NCBI GenBank assembly: GCA_964608675.1
Contig: CAZSOZ010000001.1
Coordinates: forward strand, 221,272-285,271
Reading direction: 5' to 3'
From: an uncultured archaeon
GTDB taxonomy: Archaea; Iainarchaeota; Iainarchaeia; Iainarchaeales; 1-14-0-10-31-34
Length of the DNA: 64,000 nucleotides
Part shown: in pieces, positions 36,592 to 38,358 of the stretch
Position numbering within the stretch: the stretch's first letter is position 1
Layout of the letters: each line of letters starts with the position of its first letter
The notes under the pieces: generated by a model
Database searches by the model: none
Seen by the model: the letters and a program-made list of their open reading frames with translations, nothing else
Told to the model about the DNA's origin: nothing
Position numbers and translations under genes: made by a program

Positions 36592-38358
36592 TCAGCCACT
36601 CTCTTCTTTTTTTTTCTTTTTTTCTTTTTTTGGTTCAACGTAATCTTTGGAAAATATTTGTGCGCCTCCAAATACAGGGAATTCAACATCTATTAAATCA
36701 TTTTTTTCCAGAACTTCATAACATTGTTTGATTCTTTCAGAATTTAAATTAAGTGTTTTTGCTGCTTCTTTTTCGTTTATTTTTCCTTTTTCTTTTACAA
36801 GCAAATATAATTTATCAAAATCTGTTACAATCTTTTTTTCAAGTATTTCTTTTAATTTTCCTTCAGGAAGCTTTTTTTCTTTTTTTTGTACTGCTACTTC
36901 ATCAAAGGCAGTGTCTTTTTCTTTAAGTATTTTGTTTTCTTTTTTTCCGTATTTTTTTTCAAGGTTTTCAAGTATGTCTCCAAATTTTTTCATTAATTCT
37001 TTTTCTGAAACAAATTCAAGTTCTCTTCTTATTTCTGTTTGATCAATGCTGTTTTTTTGCATCAGTCCTGCAAGCTGTTTTTCCATTTTTTCTATTTTTT
37101 TGTTGTCTGCATCAGGTGCAAGTCTTCTTATTATTCCTGTTGCCTGAATATCTTCTTTTGTGTTTCCTGTTTCTTTTGGTTCTTCTGATTTTTTTGCTTC
37201 TTTTTTTCCAAAATACGGCTCTGATTTGAATTCTTTTCTGAATTTTTTTAATGCTTCGGTTACTTTTTTTTTGCTTTGAGGAGTATGTTTTGTTGCATAT
37301 TCTATGCTTTCTTCCTGTATTGTTTTTAATTCAGGGTCCTGCGCGATTTTTTTTTCTTTTATTGCTTTTACAGCAGGCGCTTCTTTTTCTGAATAAAGTT
37401 TTGCTCTGGGCCTTTGTCTTTCCATTTCCAGAAGATTTAATTCTTCCTGATAATCAAATAATTTTTTTTTGTAGTCTTCTTCGCTTATCTGTCTGTGAAA
37501 GAAAGCAGATTTAAGGTTCTTTATTTTTTGTCTTACTTTTTGTATGTCAAATTCAAGTTGTTCTTCGCTTCTTCCAGAAAAAGCTTTAGGAATTTCTTCT
37601 GATTTTGAATGTTTTCCTGATATTATGTTTGCTCCTCCTTCAATGTTTACATAAGTATTTTTTCCTGAAGTGAATTCTTTGTGAAATTTTTCTAATGCTT
37701 TTTTTCTTTTTGACCCACCTTGTTTTTCTTTTTGCTTTTTCAATTCTTTTTCAGGAGAAGTGAATTCAATTTCAGCTTTTTTCTTTTTTCCTTTCTTTTT
37801 TTTTCTTTCTGTTTTTTTCTCTTTTTTTTCTTTTTTCTTTCCTTTGCTTTTCTTTTTTATTCCTTCTTTTTTTGTTTCTATTTTTTTTTCTACGAGTTCT
37901 TTTTTTTCCGGCAGCATTTCTTTTTCAGGTTCTTTCTTTTTTTCTCTTGTTTTTTCCGGTTTCATTTTTTTTTTGAGTTCTTCCTGTAGTTTTTTTATTT
38001 CTTTTTTTTGAAATCCTATTTCTCTTGCAATTTTTTCTCTTTTTCCTTCATTTTTTTTTATTTTATTTAATTCATCAATTAATTCTTTCAGTTTATTTTT
38101 GTCTTTTTCTTCTTTTATTCTTTTTTCAAGAAGCAAAAGACTTCCTTCTTTTTGCAGAATCATGTATTCTAATTCTTCTGCATCTTTTTTTTGCAGGTTT
38201 TCTTTTAATGCTTTGATTCTTTTTTCCGGTTTTTTTTCAGGTTTTGAAATAAAGTTTTTTATTTTATAAAAGAAATTTTTTTGATTGTTTTTTATTTCTA
38301 TTTTTTTTGCTTCAATCATTAAGGCTATAAGCTTTTCTTTTCTTTTGTTGTCTTTCAT
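36592..38358 (-). CDS. Highly charged Lys/Glu-rich low-complexity protein of unknown function; its stop abuts the ATPase start (translational coupling).
   Basis: 588 aa with long KEKK runs. The C-terminal 60 aa (LNLNSERIKQCYEVLEKNDLIDVEFPVFGGAQIF) looks like a small globular or winged-helix domain. Confidence 0.4.
   Translation of the reverse strand: MKDNKRKEKLIALMIEAKKIEIKNNQKNFFYKIKNFISKPEKKPEKRIKALKENLQKKDAEELEYMILQKEGSLLLLEKRIKEEKDKNKLKELIDELNKIKKNEGKREKIAREIGFQKKEIKKLQEELKKKMKPEKTREKKKEPEKEMLPEKKELVEKKIETKKEGIKKKSKGKKKEKKEKKTERKKKKGKKKKAEIEFTSPEKELKKQKEKQGGSKRKKALEKFHKEFTSGKNTYVNIEGGANIISGKHSKSEEIPKAFSGRSEEQLEFDIQKVRQKIKNLKSAFFHRQISEEDYKKKLFDYQEELNLLEMERQRPRAKLYSEKEAPAVKAIKEKKIAQDPELKTIQEESIEYATKHTPQSKKKVTEALKKFRKEFKSEPYFGKKEAKKSEEPKETGNTKEDIQATGIIRRLAPDADNKKIEKMEKQLAGLMQKNSIDQTEIRRELEFVSEKELMKKFGDILENLEKKYGKKENKILKEKDTAFDEVAVQKKEKKLPEGKLKEILEKKIVTDFDKLYLLVKEKGKINEKEAAKTLNLNSERIKQCYEVLEKNDLIDVEFPVFGGAQIFSKDYVEPKKEKKKKKEESG

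Follow-up and report, generated by a model that had tools for sequence, protein, structure and literature searches.

A winged-helix protein family encoded directly before the motor ATPase gene of DPANN type IV pilus-like loci: probably an accessory part or regulator of the machine

The locus

The window analysed here is the whole 64-kb stretch of DNA (64,000 nucleotides of a contig from an uncultured archaeon), and it holds a type IV pilus-like locus with a FlaI/TadA-like ATPase, a split FlaJ/TadC platform, pilins and a VWA adhesin. The gene under study (36592..38358, minus strand) encodes a polybasic, modular protein of 588 aa with a predicted winged helix at its C-terminus. Its stop codon TGA (36594-36592) is directly followed, in the same frame, by the ATG (36591-36589) of the gene of the FlaI/TadA-like secretion ATPase (35089..36591, minus strand; 500 aa; T2SSE, with a weak PilB3_C match; relatives 62-90% identical), which confirms at 36592/36591 the stop-start junction with a gap of 0 nt claimed in an earlier note made from the sequence. 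A purine-rich SD-like element, GAGAGTGG (36596-36603), lies inside the last codons of the first gene and is positioned for the start of the ATPase.

On the same strand we find the two halves of the platform protein, both T2SSF, the first (34180..35076) matching the N-terminal half of UpsF/FlaJ and the second (33183..34172) its C-terminal half. There is also a single-domain KaiC/FlaH-like ATPase (31529..32227, minus strand; KaiC E 9e-59, ArlH E 2.5e-12, the latter under the curated cut-off), whose gene is overlapped by that of a DUF7504 (degenerate KaiC-like) protein with a polybasic N-terminus (30625..31542, minus strand). On the plus strand, a pilin-like protein (32392..32835) has a class III signal-type N-terminus (KGQSALEYL...), as read from the sequence, and the related loci L001 and L003 have a small ORF at its position. 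Upstream of the gene under study, genes of the same operon-like block (38403..44507, minus strand) encode three small pilin-like proteins, two exported or membrane proteins of 320 and 366 aa, and a VWA+LVIVD protein of 923 aa with a pilin-like N-terminus. The order of this block is kept in L001 and L002, while in L003 other small ORFs stand in its place and the large VWA/LVIVD protein is missing.

Composition and modules of the protein

The protein has a mass of 69.4 kDa, a pI of 9.7 and a net charge of +54, all computed from its sequence. Recomputing its length and composition gave the Lys/Glu-rich ORF of 588 aa first described: lysine makes up 25.3% and glutamate 16.2% of the residues, and their sum of 41.5%, against 21.9% for all ORFs of the window of at least 100 aa, is the highest among the 52 ORFs. 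As the maximal hydropathy over 19 residues is 0.49, the protein has no transmembrane segment, and it has no signal peptide either.

The note had described it as almost entirely KEKK and EKKE. An AF2 model built on the family alignment and the alignment itself do not bear this out: they give confident helical modules joined by disordered linkers, with extreme low complexity limited to residues ~132-197, and according to both the protein is modular and not mostly of low complexity. The small globular region that had been seen at the C-terminus does fold, as a predicted winged helix, but it is not the sole folded part, since helical modules are predicted elsewhere.

Starting from the N-terminus, and always on the minus strand, the helical module N1 (aa 1-131; 37966..38358; pLDDT 80-89) is conserved within the close family only, and in L003 and L009 it is a separate ORF, the split of the gene falling within the linker that follows. 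This linker (aa 132-197; 37768..37965), extremely K-rich and predicted to be disordered, has a net charge of +19; its length differs among homologs, between which it cannot be aligned, and its DNA consists of A-tracts and cryptic purine repeats. The motif block M2 (aa 198-250; 37609..37767; F.SP...FH.EFTSG...I.G..II.G) is invariant in the close family and modelled with low confidence. It is followed by HP, a predicted two-helix hairpin (aa 262-318; 37405..37575; AFFHRQI.EEDYKKK.F.Y.EEL; pLDDT 92-94), kept in most long members of the family, and by H5, a small helical domain (aa 405-472; 36943..37146; pLDDT 83-87) widely conserved among the long forms. A SHOCT domain had been considered at aa 270-317; it has no Pfam support, and a scan of this fragment at E <=10 gave chance matches only, for example RecG_N at 0.041. 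The protein ends with the winged-helix domain (aa 505-572; 36643..36846; pLDDT 84-87), in which the C-terminal peptide quoted in the note occupies residues 536-569, and with a basic tail (aa 573-588, PKKEKKKKKEESG, plus TGA; 36592..36642) that overlaps the SD-like GAGAGTGG. In the AF2 model the confident helical stretches extend over residues 1-131, 265-315 and 409-479, and the winged helix over 513-570. In total 182 residues have a pLDDT below 50, and the 174 of them that lie in segments make up some 30% of the protein.

The winged-helix domain

In the AF2 model, fold comparison gives the C-terminal domain a winged-helix fold in the order H1-S1-H2-H3-S2-S3. Its nearest folds are winged helices that genuinely bind DNA or RNA, among them those of MarR, ArsR, TrmB and SelB. 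The family logo yields the signature I.TDFD ... L ... LE...L ... YP..G, with T512, D513 and D515 conserved at 70-97%. In the middle of the recognition helix H3 stand E/E/C, with E545 at 68%; E551, also in this helix, is conserved at 88%, and the tip of the wing is YP.(I/F)G, without any conserved basic residue. Moderately conserved basic residues are found at the start of H3 (K540, K541, R542) and in H2 (K534), and the median net charge of the domain across the family is 0. We infer that the conserved residues of this domain are unlike those of a DNA reader.

The databases offer little that is specific. In the protein itself HTH_24 scores 13.9 bits, under the curated cut-off of 21.9. HTH_24 or MarR matches occur in 4 of 13 close members at E <=5 (best 9.5e-5), and in 10 of 94 members of the broad family at E <=1e-3. 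PF07381/DUF1495, the EarA type, matches none of the 13 and 94 members scanned; no Linker_histone or other nucleic-acid-binding Pfam match was found in the scans of the protein, of its modules and of the family; and Pfam and NCBIfam contain no P-loop family matching the protein. More generally, searches of Pfam, NCBIfam and PDB sequences with the whole protein, the family profile and the single modules returned weak generic HTH matches only. As far as these three databases go, the view that no standard Tad or archaeal pilus component looks like this protein stands.

The family and its place before the ATPase gene

The protein has 12 close relatives of the full-length type (47-61% identity), and the alignment of these 13 sequences has 35 invariant columns, the majority of them outside the C-terminal domain. 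A protein 100% identical to ours was recovered from the Logan assembly of a public sequencing run. Because of the 12 homologs and of this identical protein, the gene is real and not a spurious ORF. An exhaustive profile search extended the family to 2,490 cluster representatives, in which the winged-helix domain is the sole common module; by these profile matches, this small domain defines an unnamed protein family from DPANN archaea. Pfam and NCBIfam have no family dedicated to it, and a keyword search of two archaeal pilus surveys found no mention of it.

The members measure 75-1105 aa, usually with the winged helix at the C-terminus, a sub-family having it at the N-terminus followed by ~200 aa of coiled coil. 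Outside this domain the family varies by lineage, with polybasic disordered linkers, coiled coils, extra helical modules and TM-like segments; the K/E-rich stretches are the least conserved portions. Since TM-like segments occur in 27 of 103 members, the winged-helix domain is likely to be placed at the membrane. The net charge is positive in 87% of the members and does not follow the GC content of the genome (r = -0.04), K being swapped for R, which argues that basicity is selected and is not a by-product of AT bias. Short members (~200 aa), some of them near-neutral, do without long basic regions.

We sampled the neighborhood from both sides. On the protein side, 30 loci were found via the protein or its winged helix, in 22 GTDB species representatives (mostly Ca. 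Iainarchaeum, one Woesearchaeota) and 8 metagenome contigs, and in all 30 the gene that follows directly after a relative of the protein, on the same strand, is that of a T2SSE ATPase. On the ATPase side, an independent sample was selected solely by 50-69% ATPase identity, and an ORF with the winged helix lies upstream in all 69 of its metagenome loci that have at least 250 nt of upstream sequence. After pooling, the winged-helix gene is found just upstream of the ATPase gene and on the same strand in 98 of 98 evaluable loci, with an overlap or a gap of at most 10 nt in 52 of them, which is a conservative estimate. The order that had been proposed for related genomes, this gene and then the pilus ATPase, is therefore kept in every evaluable locus. 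This shows that the winged-helix gene is co-encoded with the ATPase and translationally coupled to it wherever this ATPase clade has been sampled. Among the 168 proteins retrieved, no natural fusion of the winged helix with the ATPase was seen.

These results settle the case of a generic low-complexity or spurious ORF, devoid of any specific role and arising from AT-rich, A-tract-rich sequence. The coding strand is indeed 55% A, with 33 A-runs of at least 7 nt, the K-rich linker is unalignable, and it is within this linker that the gene is split in L003 and L009. However, the homologs at 47-61% identity with their 35 invariant columns, the confident AF2 modules, the 98/98 synteny, the 2,490 representatives, the identical Logan protein and the lack of a paralog in the window all go against this explanation, which conservation and synteny refute and to which we give next to no credit. 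A search of the 64-kb window for paralogs returned none, which also disposes of a generic low-complexity paralog scattered around. Of the two findings that the note had named as refuting it, neither was thus obtained.

Possible roles

From the place of the family directly before the gene of the motor ATPase, we infer that the machine probably has in this protein an accessory part or a regulator not described so far. The two terms of this alternative deserve to be weighed separately.

Because the C-terminal region is a winged helix-turn-helix, one must consider a transcription regulator specific to the locus, which the earlier note had not done: the winged helix would bind an operator of the pilus locus, and the rest would serve for oligomerisation (hairpin or coiled coil) or for signal input. 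Such a protein would resemble EarA or the membrane-bound ArnR/ArnR1 of archaella. A minority of the members match HTH_24 or MarR, and many uncharacterised regulators are encoded inside archaeal T4P loci according to Makarova et al.; wHTH regulators bound to the membrane, such as ArnR, exist as well (PMC4858521). Moreover, in the region of divergent promoters that precedes the operon there is a conserved 16-nt element, GTTCGTCAATTAACGT. It is found again before the gene of a lipoprotein-like protein of 1330 aa, and L001-L003, L009 and L011 have kept it. However, its orientation and spacing are those of a promoter element of the opposite-strand genes, with no link to our protein, and its degenerate pattern occurs 10 times in the window for 7.4 expected, which is not above chance; hence the element does not discriminate between the hypotheses. 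Against a regulator speak also the acidic or hydrophobic residues at the canonical DNA-contact positions of a neutral domain, the absence of a PF07381 match, and the fact that the gene sits in the middle of the operon and that, over 50-90% ATPase identity, practically no locus departs from its stop-start coupling to the ATPase; such rigidity of coupling is typical of a structural partner and not of a regulator. We therefore regard a regulator as possible but rather unlikely.

The strong basicity leads to another suggestion, namely that the protein handles nucleic acids for a pilus of DNA uptake or exchange, binding DNA non-specifically at the cytoplasmic face as has been proposed for UpsX. Its net charge of +54, the preservation of basicity irrespective of GC and the existence of members uniting TM anchors, winged helix and K-rich tail would suit this role, and the winged-helix fold is common to non-specific or structure-specific nucleic-acid binders (Zalpha, Sul7s, Hop2, SelB). 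The gene of UpsX directly precedes that of UpsE; pili form without UpsX, which promotes DNA exchange and relocates in part to the membrane (PMC3892339). The suggestion is nevertheless drawn purely by analogy: no ComEC or Ced-like DNA-translocation gene was seen in the locus, the short, sometimes near-neutral members have no long basic regions, and no Linker_histone or other nucleic-acid-binding Pfam family is matched, so that the likeness to linker histone H1 (a winged helix with a K-rich tail) is one of architecture only. We find such handling distinctly unlikely. A more daring form of it, which seems to us improbable, would have the winged-helix family serve a DPANN pilus of DNA uptake or exchange as its cytoplasmic receptor for nucleic acids: a polycationic protein close to the membrane, physically coupled to the ATPase, which captures DNA or hands it over. 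Nucleotide-auxotrophic episymbionts would then gain a route to host DNA, and the unexplained role of UpsX would receive a mechanistic model.

The reading that we prefer, and to which we would give somewhat less than an even chance, is that the type IV pilus-like machine of DPANN archaea has in this protein a dedicated cytoplasmic accessory subunit, which works together with the ATPase at the membrane. There are precedents, FlaH before FlaI and UpsX before UpsE: in the operons of archaeal type IV filaments, the gene just before that of the ATPase commonly encodes a cytoplasmic partner specific to the system (PMC4858521, PMC3892339). The winged helix would be a docking module holding the protein at the ATPase/platform complex, and it would bind proteins, like the winged helices of ESCRT-II or CdvA, instead of reading a DNA sequence. 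The parts that vary, be they polybasic, coiled-coil or TM, would tether the complex or set its spacing at the anionic inner face of the membrane or, alternatively, recruit further partners such as the KaiC/DUF7504 pair. The stop-start coupling would favour the co-production of the protein and the ATPase. It is plausible that the protein has a physical role as scaffold or stator of the ATPase.

Over its first 190 aa the ATPase is acidic, with a net charge of -9 against +54 for the protein. A pseudo-fusion of residues 400-588 with the ATPase, modelled by AF2 from an unpaired MSA of 66 rows with an output that has neither PAE nor contacts, reached a pTM of 0.50, with the wing at a pLDDT below 50 and no confident docking. 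In weighing an adaptor we counted for it the synteny seen from both sides, the universality of the winged helix, the TM forms, the basicity, the residues unlike those of a DNA reader, the acidic N-terminus of the ATPase and the precedents. Against it we counted that the pseudo-fusion lends docking no support, that the domain is nearest to nucleic-acid-binding folds, that about 10% of the members match HTH_24 or MarR, and that the basic residues K534, K540, K541 and R542 are moderately conserved.

The DPANN archaea are ultra-small and mostly uncultured, and the cultivated ones are all ectosymbionts needing direct contact with the host cell (PMC11291902); the analogous episymbiosis of Saccharibacteria is driven by type IV pili (PMC9894109). 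Pilus-like filaments are therefore prime candidates for host attachment in DPANN. An abundant pilus system of theirs, with a split platform and a FlaI-like ATPase, always has, in the sampled loci, an extra cytoplasmic component. Since a compact signature has been defined (I.TDFD...LE...L..YP..G), this component can now be annotated and put to the test. Should the protein bind the ATPase, it would represent a new class of motor adaptor; should DNA be its partner, it would be either a regulator of the system or a link between pili and DNA traffic.

Comparison with known components

UpsX, a cytoplasmic protein of ~79 kDa without recognised domains, partly associated with the membrane, is system-specific and encoded directly upstream of UpsE in one transcript (PMC3892339). 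By description our protein is alike: it is cytoplasmic, and its gene directly precedes that of the pilus ATPase within one operon, with a 0-nt junction. However, neither a winged helix nor a polybasic composition is reported for UpsX, and the Ups platform is a single gene whereas that of our locus is split. The protein itself has no NCBIfam match.

The earlier note had likened the position of the gene to that of TadZ, FlaX or FlaH. TadZ/CpaE, whose gene stands just before that of the TadA/CpaF ATPase, is a P-loop protein of the ParA/MinD type and acts as a cytoplasmic localisation or scaffold factor; a homology with it was rejected, as no P-loop family of Pfam or NCBIfam is matched. To our knowledge neither FlaH nor FlaX has a winged-helix domain. 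The gene of FlaH lies immediately upstream of that of FlaI, which FlaH binds (PMC4858521). Our protein lacks the RecA/KaiC fold of FlaH, and a homology with FlaH was rejected as well: there is no KaiC match, and the locus has its own KaiC/FlaH-like gene (31529-32227). FlaX is described as a membrane-anchored coiled-coil scaffold around FlaI/FlaH (PMC5019145, PMC4858521). The winged-helix family does include coiled-coil and TM-anchored forms, but our protein has no N-terminal TM anchor.

EarA and ArnR/ArnR1 share with our protein a winged helix-turn-helix domain, yet they are not known to be stop-start coupled to an ATPase, while our protein has conserved glutamates in its recognition helix and no PF07381. 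We take arCOG03422 to be EarA. ArnR is membrane-bound, and archaellum loci often contain genes for regulators of arCOG03422, the pfam07381 type (PMC4858521). Another protein, arCOG07564, is a predicted cytoplasmic, charged coiled-coil component of the T4P loci of subclade 4F, whose ATPase type is also found in nanoarchaea (PMC4858521). Compared by description, it is likewise an uncharacterised, charged coiled-coil protein inside the cell, proper to one archaeal T4P clade, but it is aspartate-rich and hence acidic, of ~170 aa, halobacterial, and reported without a winged helix. Finally, just one protein is listed as "C-terminal wHTH" in the supplementary tables of Makarova 2016; it is arCOG07863 of Caldivirga, whose gene adjoins a pilin gene and not an ATPase gene (PMC4858521).

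The gene of the 588-aa protein and the ATPase gene are linked

In this AT-rich window (GC content of about 30%), the ORF encoding the 588-aa protein (36592..38358, minus strand) immediately precedes the gene of an ATPase (35089..36591, 500 aa) which matches T2SSE with an E-value of 3.7e-37 and whose closest NCBIfam family is FlaI, with a score below the FlaI cut-off. Read in the orientation of the genes, the junction is ...GAAGAGAGTGGC TGA ATG AAA GAA...: the stop codon of the first gene abuts the ATG of the second and the frame is shared. The 0-nt gap described in an earlier note on this DNA is therefore real.

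A word-indexed search returned 12 homologs of the full-length type (47-61% identity), from MAGs labelled Diapherotrites/Iainarchaeota and Micrarchaeota, and the neighbourhood recurs in three long contigs (L001, L002 and L003). There the homolog is followed by the ATPase, two T2SSF genes, a small divergent ORF of pilin size, a KaiC-like gene and a DUF7504 gene, and the homolog/ATPase junction is either a 4-nt ATGA overlap or a 0-nt gap. Upstream of the homolog, L001 and L002 have three small pilin-like genes, a VWA+LVIVD protein of about 900 aa and two proteins of 320 and 366 aa; in L003 other small ORFs take the place of this block. A profile of the C-terminal region also found proteins of about 200 aa in which the winged helix (wH) is the sole common part, and these too are directly upstream of a T2SSE gene and two T2SSF genes. 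When the wH alignment was run against the species representatives of GTDB, 22 loci came up, one of them in Woesearchaeota and most in Ca. Iainarchaeum.

In 30 of the 30 loci reached from the protein side, the ATPase gene directly follows a wH ORF. In an independent sample taken from the ATPase side (80 metagenome loci, ATPase identity 50-69%), a wH ORF on the same strand lies upstream in all 69 loci with enough upstream sequence. The pooled count is 98 out of 98 evaluable loci. By a conservative, alignment-based estimate (a longest-ORF estimate gives shorter gaps), the two genes overlap or are at most 10 nt apart in 52 loci and at most 60 nt apart in 75, while the gap exceeds 200 nt in 11, with a maximum of about 650 nt. 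An SD-like GGTG/GGAG motif is usually found inside the last codons of the wH gene. The linkage of the two genes is strict and clade-wide, with stop-start coupling. Related genomes keep the order of the two genes, and the window ORFs include no paralog of either the protein or its wH domain; therefore neither of the objections which the earlier note had raised against its own reading, homologs away from pilus ATPases or a generic low-complexity paralog scattered through the genome, holds.

A modular basic protein with a terminal winged helix

The protein contains 25.3% K and 16.2% E. Together they make 41.5%, where the window ORFs average 21.9%, and rank first among the 52 ORFs of at least 100 aa, so that the Lys/Glu-rich composition reported earlier is genuine. 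The net charge is +54, the pI is 9.7 and no TM-like segment was found in the protein. On the other hand, to call it almost entirely low complexity was inaccurate: the entropy is under about 2.7 bits nowhere but around aa 120-200, 35 columns of the family alignment are invariant and are distributed over several blocks, and the AlphaFold2 model built on this alignment contains confident helical modules at aa 1-131, 265-315 (a two-helix hairpin, pLDDT 92-94) and 409-479, followed by an H-E-H-H-E-E domain at aa 513-570. About 30% of the chain lies in segments between the modules with a pLDDT below 50. That the ORF is spurious, or of generic low complexity, was excluded. The N-terminal module (N1) is a separate ORF in L003 (7589-8056) and L009 (4497-5108), the break falling inside a K-rich linker encoded by A-tracts; it reflects a true split of the gene or else a frameshift in a homopolymer. 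The gene in the window has 33 A-runs of at least 7 nt.

The small globular C-terminal region of the earlier note does exist and is a winged helix, though it is not the only part modelled as folded. Pfam HTH_24 is matched in 4 of 13 close homologs (best E-value 9.5e-5), the score of the window protein being under threshold; the other modules had no match in Pfam, NCBIfam or PDB sequences. An exhaustive HMMER search with the wH profile matched 2,490 cluster representatives at E <= 1e-3, of which 426 reach E <= 1e-10, for proteins of 75 to 1105 aa. Across this family the wH is the universal module, nearly always at the extreme C-terminus (median distance to the end, 17 residues); the hairpin and the helical H5 module occur in most long forms, and N1, M2 and M4 are limited to the close family of our protein. 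In some variants the wH is N-terminal and a K/E coiled coil of some 200 aa comes after it; others have TM helices at the N-terminus. None of the looked-up clusters had an informative name, and Pfam matches, seen in about 10% of members, are to generic HTH families only.

TM-like segments occur in 27 of the 103 members taken from the loci, and 87% of these members have a net positive charge. This charge is independent of genome GC (r = -0.04), K dropping and R climbing as GC rises, so that the basicity of the family is selected and AT bias is not its sole source. The family is cytoplasmic or membrane-anchored and pairs a conserved wH domain with charged appendages that vary. Identity is far higher for the ATPase (62-90%) than for its wH partner (28-61%). 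In several relatives the orthologous ATPase is much longer (670, 1000 or 1536 aa; L003 9336-12338, L009 6244-9246, L010 6246-8258, L019 6258-10868, L030 950-3955). Pfam Intein_splicing and LAGLIDADG matches in L003 and an intein match in the 670-aa ATPase cluster P0177 point to inteins; the 500-aa ATPase of the window has the standard length.

Possible roles

The best-conserved wH positions are I510, T512, D513 and D515 (H1 N-cap), then L550, E551, L555 and the wing turn Y/F560-P561-x-x-G564. The recognition helix reads E/E/C in its middle part, the family alignment shows no conserved basic residue at the wing tip and the domain is neutral; such chemistry would lean against a classical DNA reader. 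In a 657-aa metagenomic protein (P0018), the wH profile matches five separate stretches, which suggests five tandem copies of the domain, an arrangement that would be unusual for a simple regulator.

Because of this residue chemistry, of the acidic N-terminal 190 residues of the ATPase (net -9) and of operon precedents, we favour, at somewhat less than even chances, the reading that the protein is an accessory subunit: the wH domain would dock on the ATPase/platform complex, and the basic, coiled-coil or TM parts would hold the subunit at the membrane or bring in further factors. In operons of archaeal type IV filaments, the gene directly before that of the ATPase often encodes a system-specific cytoplasmic partner, such as FlaH (before FlaI) or UpsX (before UpsE) (PMC4858521; PMC3892339). 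A co-fold of aa 400-588 fused to the ATPase, with an unpaired MSA, gave a pTM of 0.50 and a disordered wing.

A locus-specific wHTH regulator is a less likely but serious alternative. Both the fold and the weak sequence signals are of the regulator type, and some regulators of archaella are membrane-bound wHTH proteins. A conserved 16-nt element, GTTCGTCAAT[T/C]AACGT (44584-44599, plus strand), is found upstream of the operon, where the promoter region is divergent; however, it is oriented as a promoter element of the opposite-strand genes, its degenerate form is not enriched and nothing ties it to our protein. A near-identical copy is found at 55941-55956 (plus strand). Both are 10-20 nt upstream of TATA-like boxes and precede, respectively, the transglutaminase-like peptidase gene beside the pilus operon and the gene of a 1330-aa lipoprotein-like orphan (N-terminus ...LFSGC). 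The element is kept at the equivalent place in five related genomes (L001-L003, L009, L011), and a cell-surface regulon may use it as an operator or promoter element. A role in DNA handling seems improbable: the polycationic character, an arrangement of wH and K-rich tail that resembles linker histones and, by analogy, UpsX would speak for it, but the locus has no DNA translocase. Membership tests rejected TadZ, FlaH, EarA, SHOCT and the linker histones as families of the protein.

Place among known systems and neighbouring genes

By its gene content alone, the locus fits archaeal systems with two platform genes, namely clade 1 and some of clade 2 of the survey of Makarova et al., and 'system 1' or the DPANN 4A variants of a 2026 preprint. 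The adjoining transglutaminase-like peptidase gene agrees with a link reported for clade 1. A keyword search of both main texts found no winged-helix/HTH partner of the ATPase, and a supplementary table has one, unrelated-looking, wHTH protein. We regard the proposed accessory subunits as a previously unnamed, clade-wide family of a known machine, the comparison with UpsX and arCOG07564 being by description only. This finding would be useful to specialists and is directly testable, the mechanism being a proposal.

The 923-aa protein encoded at 40470-43241 (minus strand), with a pilin-like hydrophobic N-terminus, LVIVD beta-propeller repeats and a VWA domain, is likely a pilus-associated adhesin; it is kept upstream of the homolog in L001 and L002. 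A second polybasic protein of the locus is a degenerate KaiC-like DUF7504 protein (30625-31542, minus strand; N-terminus KKKKKSKKKGKKKKENKKKKAKKK), whose gene overlaps by 14 nt the 3' end of a single-domain KaiC/FlaH-like gene (31529-32227, minus strand), a pair kept in L001 and L003. The divergent intergenic region 32228-32391, between the KaiC-like gene and a pilin-like gene, contains a block of about 60 nt, AAACAATTAATGAATA..TTGTATTTAAATGTTTTG.GGTTTAAGAAA, almost identical in L001 and L003 and conserved far above its flanks, which could represent a small RNA, or else a strong promoter of the pilin gene together with a 5' leader. Two proteins encoded convergently to the pilus block, a coiled-coil protein of 435 aa (28727-30034, plus strand) and a 187-aa protein with a weak DUF835 match (30065-30628, plus strand), may belong to the same functional neighbourhood; L001 and L003 have, by size and position only, comparable ORFs (437/440 aa and 183/187 aa).
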